A DNA stretch of 64,000 nt. It comes from Moorena producens. Its GTDB lineage: Bacteria; Cyanobacteriota; Cyanobacteriia; Cyanobacteriales; Coleofasciculaceae. Where the stretch lies: NCBI RefSeq assembly GCF_965240435.1, contig NZ_CBDEKO010000003.1. The stretch is one strand, 5' to 3'. Below are positions 1-46,039 of the stretch, in pieces. The position numbers were made by a program, and so were the translations under genes. The notes under the pieces are model-generated. The model searched no databases. It was not told the origin of the DNA and worked only from the letters and a program-made list of their open reading frames with translations. The stretch's first letter is position 1; each line of letters starts with the position of its first letter.

Positions 1-17
1 CGAGGTCTTGATCTCTG

Positions 18-359
18 GTGCTCGCCACAGAGCAACTCTATCGCCACAATTGGTCTGACCTCTTCTTGCCAGATCACATAACTCATTCTGAGCTCTCGTT
101 CCTGGTAGAATCGGGAAATACCTACTACCGCAAACCAATCCGGTCGTTTGTACCAAGCGGTATTTGGGGTCATAATATAAATTTAAGTCACTGGCCACAA
201 ACACCCTTTCCCTGTCATAATTGGGAGGGCGAAATGTTTCACTACACAGTTGTGGTTGCCAACTATGAAATTCGTCAGGTAAACCCGGCTCCTCTGGATC
301 TTCACTGGGTAAATCATACATGGTGGGCAGGGTTTCTTTGGCCGGATGAGGGAGAATAA
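18..359 (+). CDS. hypothetical protein (GTG start), no recognisable motifs
   Basis: 113-aa ORF from the six-frame track. An in-frame stop lies at 9-11, so the ORF is complete. No motif recognised. Confidence 0.2.
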   Translation: MLATEQLYRHNWSDLFLPDHITHSELSFLVESGNTYYRKPIRSFVPSGIWGHNINLSHWPQTPFPCHNWEGEMFHYTVVVANYEIRQVNPAPLDLHWVNHTWWAGFLWPDEGE

Positions 360-456
360 CTTTTTTAAATGAGGGTTTGGCAAGTGACATGGGATGACCT
401 CAATTTTTCCGACTGATGAGTTTGATCTTAGCAACTGGCCAACTGATCGCGAGTGT

Positions 457-577
457 AGGGAGATGGGGAGATGGGGAGATGGGGAGATGGGGAGATTTTG
501 ACCACTGTTCCCGATTCCCAGATCCGCTGTTCCCTACTCCCTACTCCCTGTTCCCTACTCCCTACTCCCTACTCCCT
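457..577. repeat. tandem heptanucleotide repeats (ggagatg xN, then ccctact xN)
   Basis: Directly visible: ggagatggggagatggggagatggggagat followed by tccctactccctgttccctactccctactccctactcc. Confidence 0.9.
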
Positions 578-583
578 TTGCTC

Positions 584-589
584 TATAAT
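584..589 (+). promoter_or_regulatory. candidate -10 box (TATAAT) in the conserved leader upstream of the NACHT paralog N-terminus
   Basis: ctctataatgatagataaaccaaaaaacaactaccaatatcATG at 581-624 is near-identical to 4636-4680 upstream of the second NACHT gene. Confidence 0.35.
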
Positions 590-621
590 GATAGATAAAC
601 CAAAAAACAACTACCAATATC

Positions 622-1047
622 ATGCTGGATTGGTTAGCAGTTTGGGGAATGTATAGTGCTGGTGGCTATCTGGCCAAGGAAGTGATTGGTCTTTTGGCGA
701 AAGAGGCTCTAGAAGACTACACGAAAGATTTTTTCAAAGAGTCTATCAAAGAGTATACCGGACTATCGGATCAAAATACCCAGAAAAAACTTTTTGGTAA
801 AGCCTTAAAAGAATTTATGGCTTTAGTGTAAAAAGAATTGAAAGATGCTGATTTATCTAAGCAAGAATTAAAACAGTATAGTAAACCTCTCAAGCAGTTT
901 ATTAAACATAAATCCATTAAAGCTATCCTGGGCAGTGCGTTCAAGTATGGCTGTGTTCACTTAGCGTGGCCAACGGCCAAGGAATAGATACCGATATATT
1001 AGCGAAGACTTGGATTGAGCTTGACTTATTAGAATTACCGGAAGGAT
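622..1047 (+). pseudogene. disrupted N-terminal domain of NACHT-HEAT paralog 1 (nonsense mutation, insertion, frameshift)
   Basis: The 622-831 ORF (MLDWLAVWGMYSAGGYLAKEVIG...) aligns to residues 1-69 of the 4678 gene. GAA is changed to TAA at 829-831. Homology continues out of frame through 832-1047 (KELKDADLSKQ..., AFKYGC...) with an extra ~30-bp insertion and a 7-bp insertion before 1048. Confidence 0.6.
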
Positions 1048-4000
1048 TTGATTGGCACTATGTACTATATTGGTAAAAGCTATCTCAAGAAAGGAAAAAA
1101 GAATAACAATAATAAAGTAAAAAATATTATTTGGAAATCCGATCAGTTACGGCCTATCCGAGATTCCCAAACCTTGGAAGCGATCGCAGAAAACACTAAA
1201 CCGGGAATTACCCCAGATGTTGACTTAAGGAAATATCAGGAAGCACTCCTAGAGAGCTACGGTAATGTCAAATTGGATAGTTTTGATACTAGTGGCTGTG
1301 CTTATAATGAACTAAAACTCTGGAAGATATTTATTCCCCAAAATGTGCGAGAGGTTCATGACTTGATGCCGGAGGGGATTCATGAACTGCCTAAGGATGA
1401 TTATCGAAAACTGCGAGAGAGTGGTGAACTAGATCAGGAAATTGACCAAAAGGAGTTGCAACGAGCTAAAGAGGTTTATTATCAACAGCCAATTCAATCG
1501 ATATTGGATGTGATCAAGAACTCTCAAGGCTATCGCTATTTGGTGGTTTTAGGAGAGCCAGGCTCTGGTAAATCTACCTTGCTGCACTATTTAGCATTGG
1601 AGTGGGCAAGAACTGATCTAACTACTGAACGTTCTCTGCGGATTCCGTTACTGATTGACTTACCCACTTATATCCGGAATCGCGATAGTGGACAGTGTCA
1701 GAATTTCTTGGAATTCTGCCATCAAAGTAGTGGAGCGATAGGTCATCTGAATCAAAATAAACTTGATGATCAGTTAAAGGCGGGTATTGTCTTCGTGATG
1801 TTTGATGGCTTGGATGAAGTGTTTGAGCCAGGGAAACGAGAGGATGTAATTACTGATATTCATCGCTTTACGAATAAGTATCCTAAGGTAAGAGTAATTG
1901 TGACATCTCGGGTAATTGGTTATAAACCCCAACGGCTACGGGATGCTGAATTTCGTCATGTTATGCTCCAAGACTTGGAGTCGGAACAAATTCAAACGTT
2001 TATCGAGCAGTGGCATGAGTTAACCTATACTGATCAAGTTGATAAAGTTAGGAAACAGGAGCGCTTACAAAAAGCCATTAAGACATGCTCTCGGATTCGA
2101 CAACTGGCGCAAAATCCCCTATTACTAACGATGATGGCAATCCTGAACCACAATCAAGAATTGCCTCGTGACCGCTCTGAACTCTATAACCAATCGTCTC
2201 GCTTACTGCTCCATCAATGGGATGTGGAACCAGCATTACTAGAAGATAATGGTGTTGATCCGAAGACGATTGATTATCAAGATAAGCAACAGATATTGGG
2301 AAAAGTGGCATATTTCATGCAGGGTAATCAAGGGGGATTAGCGGGAAATCTGATTAGTGGGGAAGATTTAGAAAGAATTATCAAAGAGGAGCTGAAGTTA
2401 CGGGAGGTTAATGACCCGAGAACCGTTGCTAAGGTAATGATTAATCAGTTGTGCAGCCGCAATTTTATCTTTTGTTCAATGGGAGCAGATTACTACGCTT
2501 TTGTGCATCGGACATTTTTGGAATATTTCTGTGCTCGGGAATTTGTCAGGAAATTTGAGAAAAAGCAGGATATTTCCCTAGAACAGTTGAAAAATGAGGT
2601 ATTTGGTAAGCACTGGCGGGATGAATATTGGCATGAAGTGCTGCAGTTGATTGTGGGCATGATTGATTCCCACAAAGGTGGAGAGATTATTGAGTATTTG
2701 ATGGCACAAGGTGAAGTAGAGGATGATTTTAATAATTTATTTCTGGCAGGGGATTGTTTATCTGAGGTTAGAAATCGGTATGAGATTAAATCAACGAATA
2801 TTGGATTACTGAATCGCGTCAAAGACTTAATTCATTATGATCTAAATTCTACTGATAACAAGTATAGAGATGAGGCCAACTTAGTCCGTGATCTTCGCAC
2901 TAAAGCTGTTGTAGCAGTAGCCACCCATTGGCAAGACCACCGAGATACCTTAGGGCTACTTAAAAAATTGGCTCGCTCTGATACGGATTTGTGGGTGCGA
3001 GCTACAGCAATTGAACAGTTAGCTAAAAGTTACAAAGACCACCGAGATACCTTAGGGCTACTTAAAAAAATTGCTCGCTCTGATACGGATTTGCGGATGC
3101 GATTTAGAGCAATAGAACAGTTAGTGCAAGGTTACAAAGACCACAAAGATACCTTAGCCGTACTTAAAGACTTGGCTCGCTCTGATACGGATTTGTGGGT
3201 GCGAGTTAGAGCAATAGAACAGTTAGTTCAAAGTTACAAAGACCACAAAGATACCTTAGCCCTACTTAAACAATCGGCTCGCTGTGATACTGATTCGGAG
3301 GTGCGATGTAGAGCAATTGAAGAGTTAGCTCAAGGTTACAAAAACCACCAATATACCTTAGCCATACTTGAACAATCGGCTCGCTGTGATACGGATTCGG
3401 AGGTGCGATGTAGAGCAATTGAAGAGTTAGTTAAAGCTTACAAAGACTACATAGATACCTTAGACATACTTCAAGAATTGGCTCGCTCTGATACTGATTC
3501 GTGGGTGCGAGCTACAGCAATTGAACAGTTAGTTAAAGCTTACAAAGACCACGGAGATACCTTAGCCTTACTTCAAGAATTGGCTCGCTCTGATCAAGAT
3601 TGGCAGGTGCGAGTTAGAGCAATTGAACAGTTAGCTAAAGCTTACAAAGACCACCAAGATACCTTAGCCCTACTTCAACAATGGGCTCGCTGTGATACTG
3701 ATTCGGATGTGCGATGTAAAGCAATAGAACAGTTAGCTAAAGGTTACCAAGACGACCAAGATACCTTAGCCCTACTTCAAGAATTGGCTCGCTCTGATAG
3801 TGATTCGTGGGTACGAATTACAGCAATAGAACAGTTAGCTAAAGGTTACCAAGACGACCAAGATACCTTAGCCCTACTTCAACAATGGGCTCGCTCTGAT
3901 AGTGATTCGTGGGTACGAGTTACAGCAATAGAACAGTTAGCTAAAGGTTACAAAGACCACCGAGATACCTTAGCCCTACTTCAACAATGGGCTCGCTCTG

Positions 4001-4485
4001 ATACTGATTCGAGTGTGCGAGTTACAGCAATTGAACAGTTAGCTCAAGGTTACCAAGACCACCAAGATACCTTAGCCCTACTTCAACAATGGGCTGGCTG
4101 TGATACTGATTGGCAGGTGCGAGTTACAGCAATTGAACAGTTAGCTAAAGGTTACCAAGACCACCGAGATACCTTGGCCCTACTTCAAGAATCGGCTCGC
4201 TGTGATACTGATTCCGATGTGCGATGTACAGCAATTAAACAGTTAGCTCAAGGTTGGAAAGACCAGCCTTGGTTATTTGAATTTTTATGGGATGGCACTT
4301 TCCATGAACCCTTTGAATGTAAGGAAGACTGGGATGACAATCCTCGACAAATAGCTCTTAATGCCATCCTGGAATATTATCCTAACCATTCCGAAACCCG
4401 ATCTTTATTACAGGATAGAGCAAAGCATGACTCGGATCCTGAACTGCGGAAGTTTGCTAAGGAGAATTTAGAATCAAGAATTTAG
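1048..4485 (+). CDS. NACHT-domain NTPase with ~13 C-terminal 34-aa HEAT-like (PBS-lyase type) repeats, N-terminally truncated relative to its paralog
   Basis: Walker A LVVLGEPGSGKSTLL and Walker B VMFDGLDEV in the typical NACHT arrangement. A 102-bp (34-aa) repeat ARSDTDxWVRxTAIEQLAxGYKDHxDTLALLQQW runs from 2937 to ~4260. About 75% identical to the 4678 gene. Confidence 0.8.
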   Translation: MIGTMYYIGKSYLKKGKKNNNNKVKNIIWKSDQLRPIRDSQTLEAIAENTKPGITPDVDLRKYQEALLESYGNVKLDSFDTSGCAYNELKLWKIFIPQNVREVHDLMPEGIHELPKDDYRKLRESGELDQEIDQKELQRAKEVYYQQPIQSILDVIKNSQGYRYLVVLGEPGSGKSTLLHYLALEWARTDLTTERSLRIPLLIDLPTYIRNRDSGQCQNFLEFCHQSSGAIGHLNQNKLDDQLKAGIVFVMFDGLDEVFEPGKREDVITDIHRFTNKYPKVRVIVTSRVIGYKPQRLRDAEFRHVMLQDLESEQIQTFIEQWHELTYTDQVDKVRKQERLQKAIKTCSRIRQLAQNPLLLTMMAILNHNQELPRDRSELYNQSSRLLLHQWDVEPALLEDNGVDPKTIDYQDKQQILGKVAYFMQGNQGGLAGNLISGEDLERIIKEELKLREVNDPRTVAKVMINQLCSRNFIFCSMGADYYAFVHRTFLEYFCAREFVRKFEKKQDISLEQLKNEVFGKHWRDEYWHEVLQLIVGMIDSHKGGEIIEYLMAQGEVEDDFNNLFLAGDCLSEVRNRYEIKSTNIGLLNRVKDLIHYDLNSTDNKYRDEANLVRDLRTKAVVAVATHWQDHRDTLGLLKKLARSDTDLWVRATAIEQLAKSYKDHRDTLGLLKKIARSDTDLRMRFRAIEQLVQGYKDHKDTLAVLKDLARSDTDLWVRVRAIEQLVQSYKDHKDTLALLKQSARCDTDSEVRCRAIEELAQGYKNHQYTLAILEQSARCDTDSEVRCRAIEELVKAYKDYIDTLDILQELARSDTDSWVRATAIEQLVKAYKDHGDTLALLQELARSDQDWQVRVRAIEQLAKAYKDHQDTLALLQQWARCDTDSDVRCKAIEQLAKGYQDDQDTLALLQELARSDSDSWVRITAIEQLAKGYQDDQDTLALLQQWARSDSDSWVRVTAIEQLAKGYKDHRDTLALLQQWARSDTDSSVRVTAIEQLAQGYQDHQDTLALLQQWAGCDTDWQVRVTAIEQLAKGYQDHRDTLALLQESARCDTDSDVRCTAIKQLAQGWKDQPWLFEFLWDGTFHEPFECKEDWDDNPRQIALNAILEYYPNHSETRSLLQDRAKHDSDPELRKFAKENLESRI

Positions 4486-4535
4486 AATCAAGAATTTAGA
4501 ATCAAGAATTTAGAATCAAGAATTTAGAATTAAGG
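4465..4535. repeat. 15-bp tandem repeat (aatttagaatcaaga x ~4.5) overlapping the stop codon of gene 1
   Basis: gaatttagaatcaagaatttagaatcaagaatttagaatcaagaatttagaatcaag; the stop TAG of the NACHT gene lies inside a repeat unit. Confidence 0.9.
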
Positions 4536-4539
4536 CGTA

Positions 4540-4626
4540 GGGTGTGTTAGGGACGGGCTCGCCAAGACGCAAGCCATAGCAAGTGTTGAGATAGTCCGTC
4601 CCGTAACGCACCACCAGGTCAAACTG
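4540..4626. repeat. hairpin element (stem gttagggacgggc / gtccgtcccgtaac); copy 1 of a family also found at 7937-8025 in inverse orientation
   Basis: ggtgtgttagggacgggctcgccaagacgcaagccatagcaagtgttgagatagtccgtcccgtaacgcaccaccaggtcaaactg. The reverse complement of 7937-8025 aligns end to end (cagtttgacc...ggtgcgttacggtgcgggc...gcccctaacgcaccc). Confidence 0.7.
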
Positions 4627-4639
4627 ATTGCCTTTTGTC

Positions 4640-4645
4640 TATAAT
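4640..4645 (+). promoter_or_regulatory. candidate -10 box (TATAAT) upstream of NACHT-HEAT gene 2
   Basis: tgtctataattatagataaagcaaaaaacaactaccaatatcATG; this leader is conserved with 581-624. Confidence 0.35.
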
Positions 4646-4677
4646 TATAGATAAAGCAAAAAACAACTACCAATATC

Positions 4678-7600
4678 ATGCTGGATTGGTTAGCAATTTG
4701 GGGACTTTCGAGTGCTGGTGGCTATCTCGCCAAAGAAGTGATTGGTCCGTTGGCGAAAGAAGCTCTAGAAGACTACACTAAAGAGTTTTTCAAAGAGTCT
4801 ATCAAAGAGTATACCGGACTATCGGATCAGAATATCCAGAAAAAACTCTTCGGTAAAGCGTTAAAAGAATTCGTGGCTTTAGTGGAAGAAGAATTGGAAG
4901 ATGCTGATTTATCTAAGCAAGACGTAAAACAATATACTAAACCGCTCAAGCAGTATATTAAAAACAAATCCATTAAAGTTATCCTGGGAAGTGCCTTCAA
5001 GTATGGCTGTAAACGAATAGATACCGAAAAATTAGATAAGACTTGGATTAAGCTTGACTTATTACCATTACCGGAAGGATTTGATTGGCACTATATTGGT
5101 AAACGGTATGTCAAGGAAGTAAAAACGATTATTCGGGAATCCGATCAGTTACGGCCTATCCGGGATTCCCAAACCTTGGAAGCGATCGCAGAAAATACGA
5201 AAGCAGGAATTACCCCAGATTTTGACTTAAGGGAATATCAAGAAGCACTCCTAGAGAGCTATGGTAATGTCAAATTAGATAGTTTAGATACTAGTGGCTG
5301 TGCTTATAATCAACTAAAACTCTGGAAGATATTTATCCCCCAAAATGTGCGAGAGGTTCATGACTTGATGCCAGAGGCGATTTATGAACTTCCTAAGGAT
5401 TATTATCAAAAACTGCGCGAGAGTGGTCAACTAGAGAACAAAATTGACCAAGAGGAGTTGCAACGAGCTAAAGAGGTTTATTATCAACAGCCGATAAAAT
5501 CCGTATTCGATGTAATTAAGGACTTTCAAGGCTATCGCTATTTGGTGGTTTTAGGAAACCCAGGCTCTGGTAAATCTACCTTGCTGCAATATTTAGCATT
5601 GGAGTGGGCAAGAACCGATCTAACTACTGACAGTTCTCTACTAATTCCCTTACTGATTGAATTACGCACCTATATCCGGAATCGCGATAGTGGACAATGT
5701 AATAACTTCTTGGAATTCTGCCATCAAAGCAGTGGAGCGATATGTCATCTGAATCAACATCACCTTGATCAGGAGTTAAAAGATGGTAAGGCATTAGTGA
5801 TGTTTGATGGCTTGGATGAAGTGTTTGATCCAGGGAAACGAGAAGATGTGATTACGGATATTCATCGCTTTACCAATAAGTATCCTAAGGTACGAGTAAT
5901 TGTTACATCTCGCGTCATTGGTTATAAACCCCAACGGCTACGGGATGCTGAATTTCGTCATGTTATGCTCCAAGACTTGGAGTCGGAACAAATTAAAACC
6001 TTTATTGAGCAGTGGCATGAATTAACCTTTACTGATCAAGCCGATAAAGTTAGGAAAAGGGAGCGTTTACAAAAAGCAATTGAGACATCTTCCCCGATTC
6101 GACAACTGGCGGGAAATCCCCTATTACTAACCATGATGGCAATCCTGAATCGCAATCAAGACTTGCCTCGTGACCGTTCTGAACTCTATAACCAATCCTC
6201 TCGATTACTGCTCCATCAATGGGATGTGGAACGAGCATTACTAGAAGATAATCGTGTTGACCCGAAGACGATTGATTATCAAGATAAGCAACAGATGCTA
6301 GCAAAAGTAGCAGATTTCATGCAGGGCAATCAAGCCGGATTAGCGGGAAATCTGATTAGTGGTGAAGATTTAGAACGGATTATCAAAGAGGAGCTGAAAT
6401 TACGGGAGGTTACTAATCCCAGAGCGGTTGCTAAGGTAATGATTAATCAGTTGCGCACCCGCAATTTTATCTTGTGTTTCATGGGAGCGGATTATTACGC
6501 TTTTGTGCATCGGACATTTTTGGAATATTTCTGTGCTTGGGAATTTGTCAGGAAATTTGAGAAAACCCAGGAGATTGACCTAGAACAGTTACAAACCCAG
6601 GTATTTTGTCAGCACTGGCGGGATGAGTCTTGGCATGAAGTGCTCAGGTTGATTGTAGGCATGGTTGATTCCAAAAAAGCTGGAGAAATTATTGAGTATT
6701 TGATGGCACAAGATGGAGAAGGGGATAAGTTTAATAATTTATTTCTGGCAGCAGATTGTTTGTCTGAGGTTAGGAATCGGTATGAGATTAAATCAACGGA
6801 TAGTGAATTACTGAATCGCGTCAAAGACTTAATTCATTATGATCTAAATTATGATTATAAGAAGTATGGAAATGAGGCAAGGTTAGTATATGATATTCGC
6901 ACTCAAGCTGTGGTAGCAGTAGCAACCGATTGGCAAGACCATCGAGATACCTTAGCCCTACTTCAACAATGGGCTCGTTCTGATACTGATTCGTGGGTGC
7001 GACGTACAGCAATTGAACAGTTAGCTCAAGGTTGGAAAGATCATCGAGATACCTTAGCCCTACTTCAACAATGGGCTCGTTCTGATACTGATTGGGATGT
7101 GCGAGTTACAGCAATTAAACAGTTAGCTCAAGGTTACCAAGACCACCGAGATACTTTATCCCTACTTCAAAAATGGGCTCGCTCTGATACTGATTCGTGG
7201 GTGCGACGTACAGCAATTGAACAGTTAGCTCAAGGTTACAAAGACGATCAAGATACCTTAGCCCTACTTCAAAAATGGGCTCGCTCTGATACTCATTCGA
7301 GGGTGCGAGTTACAGCAATTAAACAGTTAGCTCAAGGTTACAAAGACCACCCAGATACCTTAGCCCTACTTCAACAATCGGCTCGCTCTGATACTGATTC
7401 GGATGTGCGAGCTACAGCAATTGAACAGTTAGCTCAAGGTTACCAAGACCACCCAGATACCTTAGCCCTACTTCAACAATCGGCTCGCTCTGATAGTGAT
7501 TGGAGGGTGCGATGTACAGCAATTGAACAGTTAGCTCAAGGTTACAAAGACCACCCAGATACCTTAGCCCTACTTCAACAATCGGCTCGCTCTGATACTG

Positions 7601-7881
7601 ATTCGGATGTGCGAGCTACAGCAATTGTACAGTTAGCTAAAGGTTGGCACGATCAGCCTTGGTTATTTGAATTTTTATGCGATCGCACTCGCCATGACCC
7701 CTTTGAGCGTAAGGAAGACTGGGAGACAAATCCTCGACAAGTAGCCCTTAATGTCATCCTCAACTATTATCCTAAGCATCCCCACACCCAATCCTTATTG
7801 CAGGATAGAGCAGAGCATGACCCCGATCCTGAACTGCAGGAGTTTGCTCTGTTAAAATTATTAAAATTAGATGCTAATTAG
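4678..7881 (+). CDS. NACHT-domain NTPase with an unrecognised ~145-aa N-terminal domain and ~7 C-terminal HEAT-like repeats (NLR-like STAND protein)
   Basis: Walker A VVLGNPGSGKSTLL and Walker B VMFDGLDEV. 34-aa repeats ARSDTDSWVRRTAIEQLAQGY... The N-terminus MLDWLAIWGLSSAGGYLAKEVIGPLAKEALEDY... has no motif I recognise. Confidence 0.85.
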   Translation: MLDWLAIWGLSSAGGYLAKEVIGPLAKEALEDYTKEFFKESIKEYTGLSDQNIQKKLFGKALKEFVALVEEELEDADLSKQDVKQYTKPLKQYIKNKSIKVILGSAFKYGCKRIDTEKLDKTWIKLDLLPLPEGFDWHYIGKRYVKEVKTIIRESDQLRPIRDSQTLEAIAENTKAGITPDFDLREYQEALLESYGNVKLDSLDTSGCAYNQLKLWKIFIPQNVREVHDLMPEAIYELPKDYYQKLRESGQLENKIDQEELQRAKEVYYQQPIKSVFDVIKDFQGYRYLVVLGNPGSGKSTLLQYLALEWARTDLTTDSSLLIPLLIELRTYIRNRDSGQCNNFLEFCHQSSGAICHLNQHHLDQELKDGKALVMFDGLDEVFDPGKREDVITDIHRFTNKYPKVRVIVTSRVIGYKPQRLRDAEFRHVMLQDLESEQIKTFIEQWHELTFTDQADKVRKRERLQKAIETSSPIRQLAGNPLLLTMMAILNRNQDLPRDRSELYNQSSRLLLHQWDVERALLEDNRVDPKTIDYQDKQQMLAKVADFMQGNQAGLAGNLISGEDLERIIKEELKLREVTNPRAVAKVMINQLRTRNFILCFMGADYYAFVHRTFLEYFCAWEFVRKFEKTQEIDLEQLQTQVFCQHWRDESWHEVLRLIVGMVDSKKAGEIIEYLMAQDGEGDKFNNLFLAADCLSEVRNRYEIKSTDSELLNRVKDLIHYDLNYDYKKYGNEARLVYDIRTQAVVAVATDWQDHRDTLALLQQWARSDTDSWVRRTAIEQLAQGWKDHRDTLALLQQWARSDTDWDVRVTAIKQLAQGYQDHRDTLSLLQKWARSDTDSWVRRTAIEQLAQGYKDDQDTLALLQKWARSDTHSRVRVTAIKQLAQGYKDHPDTLALLQQSARSDTDSDVRATAIEQLAQGYQDHPDTLALLQQSARSDSDWRVRCTAIEQLAQGYKDHPDTLALLQQSARSDTDSDVRATAIVQLAKGWHDQPWLFEFLCDRTRHDPFERKEDWETNPRQVALNVILNYYPKHPHTQSLLQDRAEHDPDPELQEFALLKLLKLDAN

Positions 7882-7889
7882 ATGCTAAA

Positions 7890-7925
7890 GGGAATAGGGA
7901 GTTGGGAGTCGGGAGTCGGGGATAG
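7890..7925. repeat. heptamer tandem repeat (gggagtc family)
   Basis: gggaatagggagttgggagtcgggagtcggggataggg. Confidence 0.85.
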
Positions 7926-7936
7926 GGAAAAGGGAG

Positions 7937-8025
7937 CAGTTTGACCCAGTGGTGCGTTACGGTGCGGGCTGTTCCTCAGAGAGGAACAGGCGGACAATTA
8001 GTTCAAGCCTGCCCCTAACGCACCC
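7937..8025. repeat. hairpin element, inverted copy of 4540-4626
   Basis: cagtttgacccagtggtgcgttacggtgcgggctgttcctcagagaggaacaggcggacaattagttcaagcctgcccctaacgcaccc; it also contains the internal palindrome tgttcctcagagaggaaca. Confidence 0.7.
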
Positions 8026-8028
8026 TAC

Positions 8029-8133
8029 TGGCGTGGCACAGCTAAAATAGTGCAATAGCTTTTTCCGCTAAACCCTTGTTAAAAGTAGATTATGGTATTT
8101 TTCTAAAGCCCCAAATTAGCTGTGCCACGCCAC
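8029..8133. repeat. MITE-like element with 15-bp perfect terminal inverted repeats (tggcgtggcacagct ... agctgtgccacgcca)
   Basis: The arms at 8029-8043 and 8119-8133 are exact reverse complements. The ~75-bp AT-rich interior has no ORF. Confidence 0.6.
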
Positions 8134-8163
8134 TACGCCTGCGGAAGTTTGCTCAGGAGCAAT

Positions 8164-8262
8164 TAGAAGTTAGAAGTTAGAAGTTAGAAGTTAGAAGTTA
8201 GAATTTGGAATTTAGAATTATTCTGTCTTCTCTCTACATTCTTAATTCTTAATTCTTAATTC
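8164..8262. repeat. tandem repeats (agaagttag x6; aattcttaattcttaattc) flanking the Rpn gene
   Basis: gaagttagaagttagaagttagaagttagaagttagaatttggaatttagaatt ... tcttaattcttaattcttaattcaccattctacattc. Confidence 0.9.
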
Positions 8263-8276
8263 ACCATTCTACATTC

Positions 8277-9125
8277 TTACGACAACCGATTAATCTCATC
8301 CACACTCAACCCCGTATATTGAGCAATATCATTCAGAGGTAATCCTGCTGCCTTCATCTGTTTAGCAACCTGTTCTATACCTTGTTGTCTACCTTGTTCG
8401 AGACTTTCCTGAATCAAGGTTTGATTAACACTATACATATCCCGGTAGACCTTGAGGCTATCCTGATACAGGGCTTGCTCTTCAGAAGAAAAGTTGGCAA
8501 TCTCGGCTATTTCAAACAACTGAGCAAACACATCTTCTTGCAAGGGTTCAGGGGGAGCATTACATTGGGCAAGATGCCTGAATAAAAATAACCACTTGTC
8601 AAAATGGGTTTCTAGTTGATCAACAGATTTAGTAAATTTCGGTAGCTCGACATAGATGAATTTCAACTTATCGTAGAACACTTCACACCGCTGATTTTTT
8701 AGCTCTACCACATGCAACAGTTCTGAATCCTGCTTATTAAAAATAAAATCCAGAATACTGATGCTATAGACTGCGGTTAGCTTATAATTCCAATCTCCCT
8801 GTTGCGCCTGTTCTTGGATGGGTAAAGTGGAATAGTAGACACTGCGGTCTTTGAAGAAATTTTGTTTTGCCTTTTGCATTTCCACAATGAAGCGTTCACC
8901 GGTTGTGCTCTGACAATAAATATCAAAAATCGCTCTTCTATCCACTAAAGTGTTACCCAAAAACTCGGGATTCTTAATGGTGACATCCTGAATTTGATGG
9001 TGGGGAGGCAACAGCGTATTCAAGAAATCGATCAACAGTGCTTTGTTGGGCTCAGTGCCAAACACGCGCTTAAAACCGAAATCCGTCAGCAGGTGAATGT
9101 ATTTATCGGGTAATGGGAAAACCAT
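8277..9125 (-). CDS. Rpn-family recombination-promoting nuclease / putative transposase (PD-(D/E)XK, YhgA-like)
   Basis: The N-terminus MVFPLPDKYIHLLTDFGFKRVFGTEPNKALLIDFLNTLLP and the ERFIVEMQKAKQNFFKDRSVYYSTL core are the hallmark of the PDDEXK_7/Rpn (Transposase_31) family. The C-terminal SEEQALYQDSLKVYRD tail is also typical. Confidence 0.75.
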   Translation of the reverse strand: MVFPLPDKYIHLLTDFGFKRVFGTEPNKALLIDFLNTLLPPHHQIQDVTIKNPEFLGNTLVDRRAIFDIYCQSTTGERFIVEMQKAKQNFFKDRSVYYSTLPIQEQAQQGDWNYKLTAVYSISILDFIFNKQDSELLHVVELKNQRCEVFYDKLKFIYVELPKFTKSVDQLETHFDKWLFLFRHLAQCNAPPEPLQEDVFAQLFEIAEIANFSSEEQALYQDSLKVYRDMYSVNQTLIQESLEQGRQQGIEQVAKQMKAAGLPLNDIAQYTGLSVDEINRLS

Positions 9126-9219
9126 AGTTTAGAAGTTAGAAGTTAGAAGTTATAATTGAGAATTAGGAATTGGGAATGGTGAATTTAGAATTTAGAATTC
9201 TAAATTCACCATTCTACGT
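9125..9219. repeat. tandem repeats (agttagaagttag) plus the palindrome gaatttagaattctaaattc and direct-repeat copy caccattctacgttc
   Basis: caccattctac(a/g)ttc occurs at 8262-8279 and 9202-9219, bracketing the Rpn gene. The agaagttag repeats occur on both sides. Confidence 0.7.
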
Positions 9220-9295
9220 TCGGCCTTGCTGAATTAAGGAATGAATGCGCGATTATCTGGTTTTATTAAAGCCCCCGTTGGTCCCCCAACTTTGG

Positions 9296-9400
9296 GGGAC
9301 TTGTCTTGATGCAAAGCGCGAGTGGGGGAAACCACGGCAAAGCGCGAGTGGGGGAGACCCCCAAGACCGCGCTGCCTCCCCAAGACCGCGCTGCATCGCT
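9296..9400. repeat. dispersed GC-rich repeat (gcgcgagtggggga...cccccaagaccgcgctgcatcgc), internally duplicated here
   Basis: caaagcgcgagtggggga occurs twice and cccaagaccgcgctgc occurs twice. Related copies are at 17030-17068 and 39895-39930. Confidence 0.7.
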
Positions 9401-9475
9401 TAAGAGTTTTGTTCCCCCCAGAATTGGGGGGCTAGGGGGGCGAAACCATACCCATAATCAGCAACGCCCTACGTT

Positions 9476-9889
9476 CTACATTCTTAATTCTCCCTTCGAG
9501 CACAATCGCTCCAATAACGGTTTCGGAATTGTCTCAAAATCTTCCAACAAGAAATCCATGATGGCCAGATGGCGCAAGTGACCAGCAGTGGGAGGGTAAC
9601 AGCGACGACTGGTGTTAAACCAGCCATTAACGGTTTGAACGGAACAGGAGCAGATCAAAGCGATATCTTCACGAGTCAAGTCCCACTTCTGGTAGAACCG
9701 TTGCGGTGTCATACCCAATTCCCAGTAACTGTACAGTCGGATTAGGATTTGCTCGCGCTCAGTGATGGGATAGGGATAGGAATTTTCCCCCTGAGACTCC
9801 GTCTGGGCAGGCTGTTGGCCAAGCTGTTCAAGCTGCTCCATCGCTTCGTGGTAATCGATGGGAAGATAAACGAATCGTTTCTTTGGCAT
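9476..9889 (-). CDS. hypothetical protein with a putative helix-turn-helix segment
   Basis: 137-aa ORF. LTREDIALICSCSVQTVNGWF resembles an HTH recognition helix. No firm family assignment. Confidence 0.35.
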   Translation of the reverse strand: MPKKRFVYLPIDYHEAMEQLEQLGQQPAQTESQGENSYPYPITEREQILIRLYSYWELGMTPQRFYQKWDLTREDIALICSCSVQTVNGWFNTSRRCYPPTAGHLRHLAIMDFLLEDFETIPKPLLERLCSKGELRM

Positions 9890-9920
9890 TATTATAGAAT
9901 TACCTCAATTGTAATTGGGT

Positions 9921-9969
9921 AGAAAGCCGCGCTTGGCGCTTGGTCGGCAGAAAGCGCGGCTTTTTTTTC
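9921..9969 (+). terminator. rho-independent terminator-like hairpin (aaagccgcgctt ... aagcgcggcttttttttc)
   Basis: 12-bp GC-rich stem, ~19-nt loop and a T8 run on the + strand. There is no annotated + gene upstream, so it may terminate an unannotated small RNA. Confidence 0.45.
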
Positions 9970-10134
9970 ATGATTATAGTATAACCATTGGGTACTTTTA
10001 TTGTCAACCTAAAACCAAAAAAAGTCAAGGCAATTTTTAAATTTTGTAATAATTAGTTACACTTAAATAGTTAGCATGGTTACTGGTTTAGCTAATAGCT
10101 GGAATTGGGAACATAGAGTTATAAAATGTAAGTA

Positions 10135-10260
10135 GTCAGCGGTCAGTGGTCAGGGGTCAGCCATCAGCCTTTAGCTGAAAGCTGATAGCTGAAAGCTGAT
10201 AGCTGATAGCTGAATCCTTACCCCGATTCCCGATTCCCGACTCCCGATTCCCGATTCCCT
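10135..10260. repeat. heptamer tandem repeats (ggtcagt/ggtcagc, agctgat, ccgattc families)
   Basis: gtcagcggtcagtggtcaggggtcag...gctgaaagctgatagctgaaagctgatagctgatagctga...cccgattcccgattcccgactcccgattcccgattccc. Confidence 0.9.
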
Positions 10261-10262
10261 AG

Positions 10263-12890
10263 TTAATGAAGCGCTTCCCTAACTAAAATCACAGTACTAT
10301 CTACACCCCGTGCGATCGCTTCCGGAATATTGCCATGGATCGCCTGCTCCAATAATCCCTCTCGACTAGCTCCGATCACGACTACATCATACTTTTGAGC
10401 CTTGGCTAAACGAATCAAGGCATCAGAAACAGAATAGGAACGGATTGGAATTGATAGCACATCACACATACCTTTGAGTTGCTGTTTGAGGAAATAGGTA
10501 GCTTTTTCCAAGCTAGTCATTATAGGTTCCCCAGCTTGAGGGTTAAAAACCTGAGTTACTACGATTTGCTCTGCTTTAGCAAGGGTTGCTAGTATCGGAA
10601 TTAATTGTAGGGCACGGCTAGAGTTGGGTCCACCAGCAATGGGGATTAACCAACGCTTCCAGGTCTTAGCTAGTGAACCGTACTTAGCAGATTTAACATC
10701 TTCTGCTACTTCCTTGCCTTGGGGTAATTTCAGCAAGACTAAATCACAGGGAGCTTGTCGAATCAAGGTATCGATAATATTACCAAAAATCTGATTAGGA
10801 CTATTAGATGGTCCTCCCTTCCATCCCATCAAAATCAGATTAATATGTCGTTGTTTAATAGTTTCTAGAATTGCTTGAGCGGTATCGTGGGATATCCGGA
10901 TTTGGGTGTGAACTGGCATTTCCCACCGTCGCCCTAGCCTTTCCGCTTGCCTTAGCAATCTGCGACTTTTGGTAGTATCAACTGCTGTCTGAGCAGGACT
11001 AGTGCTGCGGGAGATAGGTATTACCTGCAAACACTCAAGTTCATAGTCGCGATCGCGGCCAATAGCAGTAGCTATTTCCAACAATACTGGTGCTGATTGG
11101 GGATTAGCTAAGGGAACCAACATCCGTCCACTGCCGGTAGCTGGAGCCCGAGTATAATAGACCCCATAGGAGGGATCAGGACTTGGTCCTAGTTGTTCTT
11201 TTTCCCCACTCAGTTGGTTAGCTTCGGCACGAATAATATCACTAAAGGTAATGATTCCAACTAACTTTCTGCTTTCTAGAACAGGTAACCGATTGAGTTT
11301 ATAACGATTAAGAATGTAGAGAACGTGGCTTAAGGTATCATTGTGTCTAACTGTTATCGGTTGTGGAGTCATCATCTCCTTTATAGGGGTATTTCCAGGC
11401 AGTTGGTCTCGATTCTTGGCAATATCTTCTTGAGTAATTATCCCGACCAATTTCCCCTGAGCAACTACTGGAAAGCCGCGATGACTAGAGTTACTAAAGG
11501 TCTGAATGGCTTGATCTAAGGTCATCTGACTCCCTAGGGTTTCTACCCGGCGCTGCATAATGTCAGATGCTTTCAAACCAACTAAAGTTCTTTTATCCAC
11601 CTTTACTTGAGGCAAGCTGTAGCCTTTCCTCTCCAACAAACGTTGATAGAGAGACCCTTTGGCTAATTGATCGGCAACTAGGTAGGAAACCACACAGGTG
11701 ATCATTAACGGTAGGACTAAATTAAAGTCCGTTGTCATCTCAAACACGATCACAATCGCTGTGATCGGTACCTTGGAAACCGCACTAAAAAATGCTCCCA
11801 TCCCTGCCAAGGCGTAGGTAATCGGATAACCTAATCCGAGCAGGTGATACTCACCGATGCCAACTAAATAGCCTAATGCGGAACCCAATACTAGGGAGGG
11901 ATGAAATAACCCCCCTGGTGCTCCAGAACCATAGGCAATTATGGTCAGTAAGAAATAGACTACAAAAGCGAAACTGGTAAATTCCCAACCTACATCACCA
12001 GTGAGCAACAACTCCCGCAAACCACTGTTGTTATGGAACTGATCCGGTAGCAGTGCTACAATACACCCACCAAGCATCCCAGCTATACCAATCCGCAATG
12101 GTAAGCTGAGCTTGAGGCGGTCGTAAAAATTCAGACTGGCCAGAATTCCCTGATTAAACAAAGCTGCTAGCAATCCAGCCAACACTCCTAACAATAAATA
12201 GAAGGGAATCTCACGAGCGTCAAAGGTGCTGGAAAAGTTGCTTAGTTCCCGATTGAGGTCTAGGGTACCTCCACCCAATAGCCGGGAAACCACCGCACCA
12301 ATAAAGGATGCTATAATAGCACTACCGAGAGTTATACTAGATAAATCTGGTAACAGTTCCTCAAAGATAAAGGCTACACTAGCCAGGGGAGCATTAAACC
12401 CAGCGGCTAATCCAGCCCCAGCCCCAGCAGCAATCATTTGACGTCGGTGATCAGGAGAGGTGGGTACCCAGCGAGTTAATTGAGCCGCCAAAGCTGCTCC
12501 AATATGAACCGTTGGGCCTTGACGTCCCATAGTCATTCCCGCCGCCAGAGATAGGATCGTACTTACCAACTTGACCGCAGCCACCCGTAAATTCATCGCG
12601 ATAGGAAACCGGGCAAGAGCACCTTTGATCTGAGGTACGCCACTACCAGTTGCCTCTGATGCTAGAAACTCAATCAGGAATCCGCACAGTAATCCTAAGC
12701 AGAGTCCAAAAGCAGGTAGGGCAAAGCTAGGGGGTAGGAGCAGAGATGCTTGAAGCCGCCAACTCCCTAACCAGCCAATACTGTGTTTGAGTAATACTGC
12801 TGAAAGTCCTGAGACCAATCCAATCAGACAGGCTTCGGCAAGGGCAAGACTTCTTTTGGGGATCAGCCATTGGGTAATGGGATTGATCAT
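10263..12890 (-). CDS. ClC-family chloride channel fused to a CBS pair and tandem universal stress protein (UspA) domains
   Basis: The N-terminal membrane domain carries ClC motifs GSGVPQIKGAL, GRQGPTVHIGAA and FEELL. It is followed by CBS-type repeats (LVGIITQEDI, LVGIITFSDI) and a C-terminal USP-like alpha/beta region ending VVIGASREG...HGNIPEAI. Confidence 0.85.
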   Translation of the reverse strand: MINPITQWLIPKRSLALAEACLIGLVSGLSAVLLKHSIGWLGSWRLQASLLLPPSFALPAFGLCLGLLCGFLIEFLASEATGSGVPQIKGALARFPIAMNLRVAAVKLVSTILSLAAGMTMGRQGPTVHIGAALAAQLTRWVPTSPDHRRQMIAAGAGAGLAAGFNAPLASVAFIFEELLPDLSSITLGSAIIASFIGAVVSRLLGGGTLDLNRELSNFSSTFDAREIPFYLLLGVLAGLLAALFNQGILASLNFYDRLKLSLPLRIGIAGMLGGCIVALLPDQFHNNSGLRELLLTGDVGWEFTSFAFVVYFLLTIIAYGSGAPGGLFHPSLVLGSALGYLVGIGEYHLLGLGYPITYALAGMGAFFSAVSKVPITAIVIVFEMTTDFNLVLPLMITCVVSYLVADQLAKGSLYQRLLERKGYSLPQVKVDKRTLVGLKASDIMQRRVETLGSQMTLDQAIQTFSNSSHRGFPVVAQGKLVGIITQEDIAKNRDQLPGNTPIKEMMTPQPITVRHNDTLSHVLYILNRYKLNRLPVLESRKLVGIITFSDIIRAEANQLSGEKEQLGPSPDPSYGVYYTRAPATGSGRMLVPLANPQSAPVLLEIATAIGRDRDYELECLQVIPISRSTSPAQTAVDTTKSRRLLRQAERLGRRWEMPVHTQIRISHDTAQAILETIKQRHINLILMGWKGGPSNSPNQIFGNIIDTLIRQAPCDLVLLKLPQGKEVAEDVKSAKYGSLAKTWKRWLIPIAGGPNSSRALQLIPILATLAKAEQIVVTQVFNPQAGEPIMTSLEKATYFLKQQLKGMCDVLSIPIRSYSVSDALIRLAKAQKYDVVVIGASREGLLEQAIHGNIPEAIARGVDSTVILVREALH

Positions 12891-12977
12891 TGATTGATCA
12901 TTAGTTAATTTTCATTAGTGATTATTCCTAGGTACTTTCTAAATACCAGGATAATTTCTCTAGTTACAACTAACCCA

Positions 12978-14312: not shown

Positions 14313-14320
14313 ATTGCAAA

Positions 14321-14390
14321 GGGAGTAGGGAGTAGGGAATCGGGAGTCGGGAGTCGGGAGTCGGGAGTCGGGAGTCGGGAGTCGAGGGAG
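14321..14390. repeat. heptamer tandem repeat (gggagtc x ~8)
   Basis: gggagtagggagtagggaatcgggagtcgggagtcgggagtcgggagtcgggagtcgggagtcgag. Confidence 0.95.
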
Positions 14391-14539
14391 TTTTTTCTAA
14401 CTGAATAATATCCAACTTAAATGCCCAACAGCTTAGGTAGGTGATCATCTACTACCAATATTGCATTAATTTGCACCCCTCCAAAACGTCGAATAATCTA
14501 TAGATAGATATATATAGTTGAGTTAAGAAAGGAAAAAAC

Positions 14540-14950
14540 ATGAAAAGATTTTCGAGACCCTTAAAAGCGATCTTCGCATTCTTGATGGCAGTGCAACTGT
14601 TTTTGATGATCTCCCCTGCAGCAATGGCCCAAGAGATGCCAGCCGTTATAGCTCCTGATAGCATTTGTACTCAGGATTACAACCGGTGCGGCAATAGTAG
14701 TATCTGCGTGTGCCCGGATGGATATGAATATGATGCAAGTGTCGCGTTGTGCTTGATCGAGGACATTGATGAGGCAACTAGCCGGGGATTAGACGATCGC
14801 TCGGTTAAAAGCTCATGTTCAATTCAAGTAATACCTCTGGGTCCATGTACAAAGGATAGAAATAAGCTTGGTTATCCCAGCATGTGCCGGTGCCCGGCTA
14901 TAAGCGAATACAATCAGTTATTTGGTCAGTGCGTGCTGCCATTGGGTTAA
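14540..14950 (+). CDS. small secreted cysteine-rich protein with two EGF-like Cys repeats
   Basis: Signal peptide MKRFSRPLKAIFAFLMAVQLFLMISPAAMAQ. Two repeats share the Cys pattern C..D.N.CG.SS.CVCP.GYEY and C....GPC....N..G.PSMCRCP.ISEY. Confidence 0.5.
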   Translation: MKRFSRPLKAIFAFLMAVQLFLMISPAAMAQEMPAVIAPDSICTQDYNRCGNSSICVCPDGYEYDASVALCLIEDIDEATSRGLDDRSVKSSCSIQVIPLGPCTKDRNKLGYPSMCRCPAISEYNQLFGQCVLPLG

Positions 14951-36219: not shown

Positions 36220-36239
36220 TAGATCGTTAACAAGTACTC

Positions 36240-46015: not shown

Positions 46016-46039
46016 AAACGCGAACGGCTCAGGGAGCAG

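Follow-up and report, generated by a model that had tools for sequence, protein, structure and literature searches.

The window, by which we mean the whole 64,000-nucleotide stretch of Moorena DNA analysed (all positions refer to it), contains two NACHT-HEAT genes in tandem on the + strand, designated copy 1 and copy 2. The paralogs reported in the preliminary description are present; outside the repeats, their bodies share about 84% amino acid identity. The features of the locus are as follows:

584-621, +: conserved stretch upstream of copy 1, aligned between the copies and 7 Moorena loci
622-1059, +: decayed NNH2 remnant of copy 1, ancestral codons 1 to about 146, from alignment to copy 2
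955-977, +: 23-bp insertion, copy of a dispersed short Moorena repeat with the core GCGTGGCCAACGGC, from ortholog alignment
1057-1063, +: founding 7-bp tandem duplication ACTATGT, which shifts the frame and makes a new ATG at 1060-1062
1060-4485, +: copy 1, N-truncated NACHT-HEAT protein of 1141 aa, from ORF and Pfam
1090-1113, +: 24-bp in-frame insertion specific to copy 1, from alignment
1534-2019, +: NACHT core of copy 1, from Pfam
2933-4265, +: HEAT-like array of copy 1, 13 units, from array structure
4463-4534, +: 14-bp tandem repeat AGAATTTAGAATCA, five times, overlapping the copy 1 stop codon
about 4547-4607: imperfect inverted repeat 3' of the 14-bp repeat
4678-7881, +: copy 2, intact NNH2-NACHT-HEAT protein of 1067 aa, from ORF and Pfam
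4750-5292, +: NNH2 of copy 2, with an N-terminal region from 4678, from Pfam
5536-6021, +: NACHT core of copy 2, from Pfam
6935-7645, +: HEAT-like array of copy 2, 7 units, from array structure

The stretch at 584-621 carries a perfect TATAAT at 584-589, about 32 nt before the ancestral ATG of copy 1, and its equivalent precedes copy 2 at 4640-4677. It is regarded as a putative promoter only, since a promoter and terminator scan gave counts not above those of shuffled sequence. A search of positions 1-10000 against Rfam, for a structured RNA in the leader or between the genes, gave no match. No defence island was found at the locus, where the neighbours are Uma2, Rpn/PDDEXK_2, ClC channel, PmbA and Tab2-like genes. 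In Nostoc and Coleofasciculus the homologs are likewise located amid housekeeping genes, those of Nostoc adjoining, for example, CO2-uptake and carboxysome genes, and apart from the full-length sibling of copy 1 no neighbour gene is conserved in Nostoc, Coleofasciculus or Moorena. Signalling through an amyloid motif (BASS/Bell type) to an adjoining effector was considered and dropped, because Uma2 is the gene that lies upstream and none of the three genera has a conserved small partner gene.

Copy 2 and the NNH2-NACHT-HEAT family

Both proteins give Pfam matches to NNH2, NACHT and HEAT_2, that of NNH2 being partial in copy 1. The N-terminal domain, which had been described as unrecognised and of about 145 aa, is Pfam PF22734 (NACHT N-terminal Helical domain 2), matched in copy 2 at residues 25-205 (E=3.4e-58; 196.8 bits against a gathering cutoff of 27) over profile positions 1-181 of 181 and N-terminal to the NACHT module; its length is about 160-205 aa. 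The N-terminal sequence MLDWLAxWG...KESIKEYTGLSDQN is indeed common to both copies. NACHT (PF05729) is matched with E=5.8e-16 in copy 2 and 1.9e-13 in copy 1. The Walker A P-loop GxxGxGK[ST] reads GNPGSGKST in copy 2 (residues 293-301) and GEPGSGKST in copy 1, and the Walker B motif FDGLDEV of both copies fits the D[GAS]hDE signature, its columns being invariant over 42 homologs. The full-length AF2 model of copy 2 has a mean pLDDT of 84, and its top Foldseek matches are NLRP3 (E=1.6e-8) and NLRP14, within E=1.6e-8 to 4e-8. On this model, copy 2 is predicted to have the nucleotide-binding domain with helical and winged-helix extension typical of NACHT clade STAND NTPases. The Pfam matches and the model agree with the NLR-like STAND identity proposed earlier.

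In the same model NNH2 forms a separate domain, joined to the NACHT module by a linker at residues 167-178 (pLDDT <50). The domain occurs in 302 clusters at 50% identity, nearly always at residues 1 to about 210, and has a conserved N-terminal tip, M-x-D-W-L-A-V-W-G-V-x-x-A-V-G-F. It contains no invariant residues of catalytic type, and no solved structural relative of it was found. NNH2 is also paired with FGE-sulfatase sensors (Kibby et al., Table S1, bioRxiv 10.1101/2022.07.19.500537). In the same work, the figure legend for the tested bNACHT proteins names NNH1 and does not name NNH2; a published experimental test of an NNH2 protein was not found in the literature. That NNH2 is the effector or output domain is an assumption.

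Copy 2 is an ordinary member of a cyanobacterial family of NLR-like STAND NTPases with this architecture. Its 3586 homologs of like domain content are spread over the filamentous cyanobacteria, with thousands in Moorena, Nostoc, Anabaena, Calothrix, Microcoleus and Coleofasciculus. The NNH2+NACHT+HEAT_2 architecture (PF22734, PF05729 and PF13646) was already listed by Kibby et al. (Table S1), for example in Westiellopsis prolifica TBR56486.1; copy 2 has identical domains in identical order and the whole NNH2 profile, with no material difference, whereas copy 1 lacks NNH2 profile positions 1-121. With the tested antiphage bNACHT and Avs STAND proteins the family shares the NACHT fold, Walker A, the D-G-h-D-E Walker B, a C-terminal repeat sensor and the single-gene organisation. 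It differs from them in having no recognised enzymatic effector, no defence-island context, and PADLOC and NCBIfam matches at the P-loop only. For both proteins, PADLOC returned mad8 alone (38 P-loop residues, E=8.8e-6) and NCBIfam returned EruA at 55.8 bits against a cutoff of 1000, a match at the level of the P-loop.

The HEAT arrays, estimated previously at about 13 and 7 repeats, contain exactly 13 and 7 units, each of 34 aa (102 bp). Relatives of copy 2 have 7, 7, at least 12 and at least 13 units, and positions 13, 18, 20, 21 and 24 within the unit are hypervariable. Between copy-1 orthologs the array has a dN/dS of about 0.81-1.18 with an unbroken frame, which fits relaxed as well as diversifying selection. 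A PDB sequence search gave alphaRep matches to the HEAT units only. Near-identical units with few variable positions are also found in the designed alphaRep binders, which are artificial proteins, and in fungal NLRs of the HET-E/D type, whose internal repeats are highly conserved and whose unit number changes between strains as it does here; the fungal repeats are of the WD, ANK or TPR type, and those described here are HEAT-like. A conserved C-terminal cap, DPF..NPRQ.AL..I...YP, follows the array and is kept in both copies.

Truncation and retention of copy 1

Copy 1 lacks a complete N-terminal domain, as noted before: its NNH2 match is confined to profile positions 122-181 (56 bits). The GAA to TAA change was located at 829-831, where copy 2 reads GAA, and the indels are three insertions, of 23 bp (955-977), 7 bp (1057-1063) and 24 bp in frame (1090-1113). 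The internal ATG had been placed at 1048, but position 1048 is a TTG and the first ATG of the long ORF is 1060-1062. Public gene calls for six orthologs (P0006, P0007, P0009, P0014, P0015 and P0119) begin at this new ATG (MYYIGK). The remnant at 622-1059 is probably now a 5' leader. A 69-aa ORF at 622-831 was considered as a separate small protein and rejected for lack of conservation, since most orthologs end at codon 64, L005 has no ATG and L009 encodes 121 aa. Programmed frameshifting or read-through rebuilding the full-length protein was also rejected, since stops and indels differ among lineages. The window, L002, L003 and L009 carry the 23-bp insertion, and L004, L005 and L010 do not; relatives of this repeat occur at intergenic sites and inside other paralogs.

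The founding 7-bp duplication is present in seven of seven copy-1 loci, the window included, and in none of the copy-2 genes. Over these orthologous loci the 146-codon remnants carry at least 13 different disabling lesions (nonsense mutations, one loss of the start codon, and indels of 1, 2, 4 and 23 bp), and their nucleotide divergence of 0.034-0.085 is near the dS of the body. The body of about 1141 codons shows no stop and no frameshift in any ortholog, and an ORF of about 1140-1190 codons is kept in at least 8 genomes, including M. producens 3L and M. bouillonii. In phylogeny, these truncated proteins group as a single monophyletic clade that spans at least 8 genomes. Among orthologs, dN/dS is 0.36-0.47 for copy 1 and 0.28-0.45 for copy 2. 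Partitioning copy 1 gives 0.76 over codons 1-50 and 0.32-0.33 over codons 51-450, so that constraint sets in at about codon 51, the predicted boundary between linker and NACHT; in the NACHT domain itself it is 0.33, equal to the intact paralog. The motifs GEPGSGKST (Walker A) and FDGLDE (Walker B) are unbroken. Copy 1 has fixed changes at positions of NACHT that are invariant in the family, E328D, R330P and about 7 more, R330P sitting just past the Walker A strand; such changes may have altered or disabled the NTPase switch.

The preliminary description had left the choice between a decaying pseudogene and an effector-less variant. The first is strongly disfavoured and is given very little probability. 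On that view, the long ORF would have stayed open either fortuitously or because copy 2 converted it; the points in its favour are the plainly broken 5' part, the raised dN/dS in the first 50 codons and the HEAT array, and the loss of the gene in the close relative L001. Against it, the truncation is ancestral and the long ORF nevertheless persists; a neutral simulation put the probability of a stop-free ORF at 0.003 for 0.03 substitutions per site per lineage; and lesions occur at neutral density in the remnant but are absent from the body, rather than being spread throughout the gene with a dN/dS near 1 as in a pseudogene. Gene conversion holding copy 1 open was rejected, since the copy-1 proteins form their own clade, at a dS of about 0.2-0.26 from copy 2, which excludes recent conversion. 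The shared truncation, the ORF intact in at least 8 genomes and the NACHT dN/dS of 0.33 thus support the second option, and the comparative evidence clearly favours an effector-less variant.

The arrangement of the pair, whose lack of conservation had been named beforehand as a ground for refuting the proposal, is present throughout: a full-length NNH2-NACHT-HEAT gene lies immediately downstream of copy 1 in 7 of 7 Moorena loci. L001 has copy 2 and no copy 1; the reverse was never seen. High confidence attaches to the family membership, to the truncation being shared, to selection acting on the body and to the adjacency being conserved. What is new is that copy 1 is not decaying and is held by selection; the gene family itself is already catalogued.

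Possible roles of the pair

If copy 2 works as characterised NLRs do, its hypervariable HEAT array would bind a ligand, its NACHT module would oligomerise, and the clustered N-terminal NNH2 domains would give the output. NNH2 is an all-helical domain on a tether, whose hydrophobic N-terminal tip is conserved, and it probably acts without enzymatic activity, for instance by damaging membranes or by recruiting a host factor. Copy 1 was born by tandem duplication in an ancestor of the sampled Moorena strains; the 7-bp duplication then severed NNH2 and created the new ATG, after which the NACHT-HEAT body has stayed under purifying selection while the orphaned 5' remnant decays neutrally. Without an output domain, copy 1 most likely acts through its full-length sibling downstream, as a second sensor that, with its own 13-unit array, co-assembles with copy 2 and borrows its NNH2 domains. 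The immune role, the NNH2 output role and the hetero-assembly of the two copies, taken together as a mechanism, are given slightly less than even odds. PADLOC and NCBIfam matches reaching no further than the P-loop, and the lack of a defence island, speak against this mechanism. Adjacency may be a mere leftover of tandem duplication, L001 does without copy 1, and the changes at invariant positions and a HEAT dN/dS near 1 also count against it.

The likeliest role of copy 1 is that of an effector-less NLR working with or against its full-length neighbour. The boldest form of this reading, at a probability of roughly 0.35, is a prokaryotic paired NLR in which a truncated duplicate would have been selected for hetero-assembly as an effector-less sensor, lending a second array (as in NAIP-NLRC4) or restraining its neighbour (as NRG1C does), and in which NNH2 would be a self-contained, non-enzymatic death or output domain activated by clustering. 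In sensor/helper pairs, recognition falls to one NLR, and a related NLR with which it co-assembles contributes the output domain; a NAIP, however, is not simply a truncated NLRC4. The parallels for such a pair would be plant NRG1C and animal NAIP/NLRC4, the likeness to the latter, as to plant sensor/helper pairs, being a pure analogy of proposed logic. Arabidopsis NRG1C is an N-terminally truncated helper NLR beside full-length NRG1A and NRG1B; it has lost most of its NB domain, keeps WHD-LRR and inhibits by sequestering EDS1-SAG101 (10.1101/2021.01.27.428547; PMC12177489). It resembles copy 1 in the loss of an N-terminal output domain, putative in copy 1, in its place within a cluster of full-length siblings and in its conservation among related species. 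It differs in that copy 1 keeps a whole NACHT under constraint, and in being a plant NB-ARC and LRR protein, whereas copy 1 is a bacterial NACHT and HEAT protein known here from comparative sequence.

That layout, the clade-specific changes at invariant NACHT positions including R330P, the lack of any output domain and the dispensability of copy 1 in L001 would all suit an antagonist or decoy that dampens copy 2 through poisoned mixed oligomers or as a sink for a ligand or cofactor, much as NRG1C dampens NRG1A/B. This role is nevertheless rather unlikely: copy 1, unlike NRG1C, has retained its NACHT in full, with both Walker motifs unbroken and purifying selection acting on it, and the arrays of the two copies differ in length and variable residues, which argues against simple competition for one ligand. 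Copy 1 might also function alone as an NTPase-HEAT switch with output via the C-terminal cap or an unlinked host factor, adjacency being a trace of duplication. The cap is retained in both copies, the family is generally without a partner gene, and some bacterial NACHT proteins have an effector at the C-terminus (Kibby et al., 10.1101/2022.07.19.500537). Autonomy is unlikely all the same, as no copy 1 was found without a full-length neighbour in 7 loci, and the cap is a poor candidate for output because it is short and full-length members have it too.

A further alternative cuts across these, since it concerns the role of the family and not the relation of the two copies: the family may serve filamentous cyanobacteria as a signalling NTPase in housekeeping or development and not in immunity, with the pair as ordinary paralogs. 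The housekeeping contexts, such as the CO2-uptake and carboxysome genes in Nostoc, and the lack of matching defence models favour it. It is considered improbable, because repeat variability (near-identical HEAT units with few hypervariable positions), strain-dependent unit number and common paralog turnover with varying presence and absence are hallmarks of conflict-driven NLR sensors; the occurrence of NNH2 with FGE-sulfatase sensors also counts against it.

The practical weight of the finding is limited, since the evidence is comparative, a single genus has the arrangement and the gene family was already catalogued. To our knowledge, bacterial NLR-like proteins have been described as single-gene systems, with sensor, switch and effector on one polypeptide, and plants and animals are as yet the only groups from which paired NLRs and truncated regulatory NLRs have been described. 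The pair offers a natural experiment on the role of NNH2, with a full-length and an NNH2-less protein that are 84% identical. If the reading as a paired NLR is true, a truncated but retained paralog fixed beside its sibling would mean that NLR networks evolve in multicellular bacteria too.

The tandem pair and its truncation

Two paralogous genes lie in tandem on the plus strand at 622-7881. The downstream gene (copy 2) is intact. The upstream gene (copy 1) has the start context and the first 69 codons (622-831) of copy 2, is then broken, and opens again further on as a long ORF reaching to 4485. A DNA alignment of the 5' parts of both genes, combined with frame-by-frame translation, gives four differences in copy 1:

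829-831 (+): TAA in copy 1, GAA at the equivalent position of copy 2
955-977 (+): 23-bp insertion in copy 1
1057-1063 (+): 7-bp insertion ACTATGT in copy 1
1090-1113 (+): 24-bp in-frame insertion in copy 1
4678-7881 (+): copy 2, intact, 1067 aa

These changes bear out the preliminary description of tandem paralogs in which the N-terminal domain of copy 1 is broken by a GAA to TAA change and indels. The ATG reported there at 1048 is a TTG, and the long ORF has its first ATG at 1060-1062. Excluding the repeats, the two proteins are ~84% identical. A Rfam search of 1-10000 gave no family match.

Homologous loci were obtained from a scan of one genome per species and from exact look-ups:

L001: close metagenomic relative
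L002: Moorena sp. SIO3H5
L003: Moorena MAG
L004: M. producens 3L
L005: M. bouillonii PNG5-198
L009: Moorena sp. SIOASIH
L010: Moorena sp. SIO3B2

In the window and in six of the seven other loci, the exception being L001, the upstream gene has its long ORF opening at the same point, ...NYRKDLIxTMYYIGK. In alignments of the loci the ACTATGT duplication, which shifts the frame and creates the new ATG at 1060, is present in all seven copy 1 genes and in no copy 2 gene; the 24-bp insertion, encoding KKGKKNNN, is likewise found in 7/7 copy 1 genes and is absent from every copy 2 gene. Public gene calls begin with MYYIGK at the new ATG (proteins P0006, P0007, P0009, P0014, P0015 and P0119), P0014 from Moorena sp. 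SIO4G3 being 96% identical to copy 1 of the window. The truncated proteins group as a single clade in a neighbour-joining tree built from the NACHT region, with the copy 2 group as its sister. By the two shared insertions, the common ATG and the single clade, the truncation arose once, before these strains and species diverged.

Decay of the remnant and selection on the body

Besides the founding frameshift, at least 13 different lesions are present in the 146-codon NNH2 remnant across the seven copy 1 loci, including the following:

TAA at codon 28, lost ATG and 1-bp deletion: L005
TAA at codon 64: five loci
TAA at codon 70: window only
TAA at codon 112: L004 and L010
TAG at codon 122: six loci
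TGA at codon 137: L002 and L003
1-bp insertion: L002
2-bp deletion: L003
4-bp deletion: L010
23-bp insertion: four loci

The lesion pattern across the loci is not tree-like, which suggests that alleles have recombined and that the 23-bp element is mobile; the remnant in the window carries the 23-bp insertion and neither of the two commonest stops. Among orthologs the remnant has a nucleotide divergence of 0.034-0.085, close to the value at synonymous sites of the body (dS 0.07-0.09). In L009 (5374-5928) 111 NNH2 codons of the remnant can still be read without a stop, and the frame closes within the 23-bp insertion; gene callers place the start at an upstream GTG there and report a "NNH2" protein of 184 aa, an ORF not conserved in the other six loci.

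The 23-bp insertion is a copy of a short repeat, roughly CGCGTAGCGTGGCCAAMGGCC, which is dispersed in Moorena genomes at intergenic sites and inside coding DNA. It was located at 955-977, 45951-45964 (-) and 46001-46019 (+) in the window, at 294-307 and 15424-15437 in L001, at 4371-4402, 6646-6659 and 6882-6895 in L003, and at 13120-13133 in L004. Several paralogs (P0006, P0014, P0028, P0099 and copy 2 of L004) have the repeat within the C-terminal cap, where it is translated in frame to "RVAWPTAN...". Because its presence and absence depart from the gene tree, the repeat is suggested to be a very small mobile element.

The body of copy 1 (~1141-1190 codons) contains no stop or frameshift in any ortholog. 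When neutral substitutions were simulated on the copy 1 ORF of the window, the probability of its staying open was 0.022 at 0.02 substitutions per site and 0.003 at 0.03, and at 0.045 or more it was open in 0 of 1000 runs. The dN/dS (Nei-Gojobori, 620 non-repeat codons) was 0.36-0.47 among copy 1 orthologs, compared with 0.28-0.45 among copy 2 orthologs. Along copy 1 it was distributed as follows:

codons 1-50: 0.76
codons 51-105: 0.32
codons 106-300: 0.33
codons 301-450: 0.33
codons 451-637: 0.65

The onset of constraint falls near the position of the NNH2/NACHT linker in the AF2 model. The last NNH2 helix, a leftover in copy 1, is thus released from constraint, and the NACHT module is constrained as strongly as in copy 2. 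Both Walker motifs of copy 1 are intact, A as GEPGSGKST and B as FDGLDE. Copy 1 had been described as either a decaying pseudogene or an effector-less variant. The first is therefore rejected as very improbable, given the open bodies, the simulation, the NACHT constraint and the Walker motifs; the second is clearly favoured, and copy 1 encodes a selected NACHT-HEAT protein without NNH2. These comparisons show copy 1 to be an anciently truncated paralog with its NACHT module under purifying selection.

At 238 columns that are at least 90% conserved in 42 family members, copy 1 orthologs deviate 13-18 times and copy 2 three times. Nine changes are clade-wide in copy 1 (copy 2 numbering): F182V, E328D, R330P, F451Y, S471C, R492H, R593C/S, L599F and A692G. 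Neither E328 nor R330 varies among the 42 family members; E328D and R330P, present in all copy 1 orthologs, lie in the "LLIELRTY" strand after Walker A (window ~1600-1610). Such fixed changes at conserved columns are read as signs that copy 1 may have changed function.

Domain architecture of the family

Copy 2 is a standard NNH2-NACHT-HEAT protein. Its N-terminal domain, previously regarded as unrecognised, is the named Pfam family PF22734, "NACHT N-terminal Helical domain 2" (NNH2), which covers residues 25-205 with all 181 profile positions (E=3.4e-58) and is followed by NACHT (PF05729) and HEAT_2. NNH domains were named by Kibby et al. in bacterial NLR-related proteins (10.1101/2022.07.19.500537). 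Table S1 of that paper lists the exact NNH2+NACHT+HEAT_2 architecture in a cyanobacterium, and NNH2+NACHT+FGE-sulfatase in Chloroflexi and Nitrospirae; no function was given to NNH2, and the legend of the tested-protein figure names NNH1 only (10.1101/2022.07.19.500537). The family and its N-terminal domain are thus already known, and the domain is not new.

At E<=1e-10, a homolog search returned 3586 proteins. Moorena species give the best matches (72-96% identity), followed at 50-60% by Nostoc, Anabaena (including the PCC 7120 lineage), Calothrix, Microcoleus and Coleofasciculus, nearly all with the three domains NNH2-NACHT-HEAT. The N-terminal domain alone matched 302 clusters among 1.84 billion cluster representatives, in almost all at residues 1 to ~210 of proteins of 900-1500 aa. 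Among the best 150 of these matches the sole clear non-N-terminal NNH2 is in P0158, an NNH2-NACHT protein with a 570-aa extension N-terminal to NNH2.

The extreme N-terminus is conserved family-wide as M-x-(D/E)-W-L-x-x-W-G-V-x-x-A-V-G-F; with a Kyte-Doolittle value of 0.9 across 19 residues this tip is moderately hydrophobic, and it is not amphipathic. In an AF2 model of residues 1-285, built on a 29-sequence alignment, there is an all-helical core at 50-155 with pLDDT 85-97. The core is unchanged in the full-length model of copy 2 (mean pLDDT 84), where a linker with pLDDT <50 (167-178) precedes the NACHT module and a regular HEAT solenoid; because of this linker NNH2 is predicted to be a separate, tethered domain. 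A Foldseek search of the NNH2 model against the whole PDB gave no match at E<=1e-3; the full-length model matched NLRP3 and NLRP14 best (E=1.6e-8 to 4e-8), then HEAT proteins. Since the invariant columns of the domain are mostly hydrophobic or aromatic (K35, L73, L119, P132, W137, Y144), no catalytic signature is visible among them, and an enzymatic role is unlikely.

Both HEAT arrays are built of 102-bp (34-aa) units, and the earlier estimates of ~13 and ~7 agree with the measured numbers:

2933-4265 (+): copy 1 HEAT array, 13.1 units
6935-7645 (+): copy 2 HEAT array, 7.0 units

Copy 1 has 13-14 units in the four loci where the array is fully read; the counts among copy 2 relatives are 7, 7, at least 12 and at least 13. 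Variability within the unit is concentrated at positions 13, 18, 20, 21 and 24, and the units are matched in the PDB by the designed binder scaffolds alphaRep. The array dN/dS between copy 1 orthologs is 0.81-1.18 with the frame intact, consistent with a binding surface under selection that is either diversifying or relaxed. In copy 1 the HEAT array is distinct and variable, and an N-terminal output domain is lacking.

A 14-bp tandem repeat, AGAATTTAGAATCA x5, spans the copy 1 stop codon (4463-4534), with an imperfect inverted repeat 3' of it (~4547-4607). Repeat slippage seems to vary the C-terminus, since orthologs end differently (ENLESRI, ENLE, ENLEFRMKNLE).

Locus context and possible mode of action

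The paired arrangement is conserved: a full-length NNH2-NACHT-HEAT gene follows copy 1 at ~150-350 bp in 7/7 loci, with qualifications for two. In L003 the downstream gene is frameshifted (13726-14400), possibly through MAG assembly error, and in L005 (M. bouillonii) a C-truncated third fragment (13298-14758) lies between the two genes. This fragment is NNH2 plus half a NACHT (477-486 aa), and the full-length gene there belongs to a different paralog clade. The locus is polymorphic for the presence of copy 1, because the close relative L001 lacks it entirely; there the copy 2 ortholog is 96% identical to that of the window and the flanks are the same, with Uma2 upstream and Rpn-type, 135-aa and ClC-channel genes downstream. 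By this comparison copy 1 can be lost with copy 2 kept; the opposite case was not seen among the loci examined. L001 also differs from window 1-13000 by an additional Uma2 gene downstream.

Two genes lie just downstream of copy 2:

8277-9125 (-): Rpn-family PD-(D/E)XK "transposase-like" gene
9476-9889 (-): 137-aa ORF without family match

This pair also occurs in L001 and L009 and is absent from L002, L004 and L010. The NACHT genes are flanked by tandem repeats (458-496, 505-577, 7890-7928, 8163-8217), including the heptamers or octamers GGGAGATG x4.9, TCCCTAC x6.7 and TTAGAAG x7.9, whose translations (TPYSLLP...) recur at neighbouring ORF ends in all Moorena loci. Elsewhere in the window are adjoining genes for an APH-family phosphotransferase and a HopA1 effector-family domain protein (E=8e-52; 18282-19472 and 19643-20848), and two paralogous export modules (32992-38622 and 53444-58452), each with a cNMP-binding + C39 peptidase + ABC transporter gene and a HlyD gene; a gene for an RTX-repeat / C-type lectin / serralysin-C-terminal protein lies between the modules (46607-48433).

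In Nostoc/Anabaena the ortholog is located between a NifH-fold ATPase gene (Fer4_NifH) and CO2-uptake and carboxysome genes, and in Coleofasciculus the neighbours are unrelated; no conserved partner gene was found in these neighbourhoods. Given a family that lacks a partner gene and an NNH2 that lacks a catalytic signature, the simplest view of this domain is a self-contained output or adaptor module that is not an enzyme. By analogy with characterised NLRs, ligand binding by the repeat array would release the NACHT switch, oligomers would form and the clustered N-terminal domains would act. Action on a membrane is a reasonable guess from the conserved hydrophobic tip at the free N-terminus; the fold search gave no support for it. 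PADLOC and NCBIfam defence models gave matches at the P-loop level only, and the remainder of the window does not form a defence island.

Having a sensor and a switch and no output, copy 1 would act only via something else, and its 84%-identical neighbour is the obvious candidate. Hetero-assembly is favoured for this reason: copy 1 may be an extra sensor that assembles with copy 2 and uses its NNH2. The main rival, which we consider rather unlikely, is that copy 1 inhibits its full-length neighbour, as does Arabidopsis NRG1C, which is N-terminally truncated, lies beside NRG1A/B and inhibits both (10.1101/2021.01.27.428547; PMC12177489). The precedent shares with copy 1 the N-terminal truncation beside full-length siblings; copy 1, unlike NRG1C, retains the entire nucleotide-binding module. 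Autonomous function of copy 1, without copy 2, is somewhat less likely again. A non-immune role of the whole NNH2-NACHT-HEAT family is improbable.

The evidence is comparative and comes from one genus. In the open-access literature nothing comparable was found on truncated or paired bacterial NACHT proteins. What is apparently new is a bacterial truncated NLR paralog kept by selection across a genus and fixed beside its full-length sibling.
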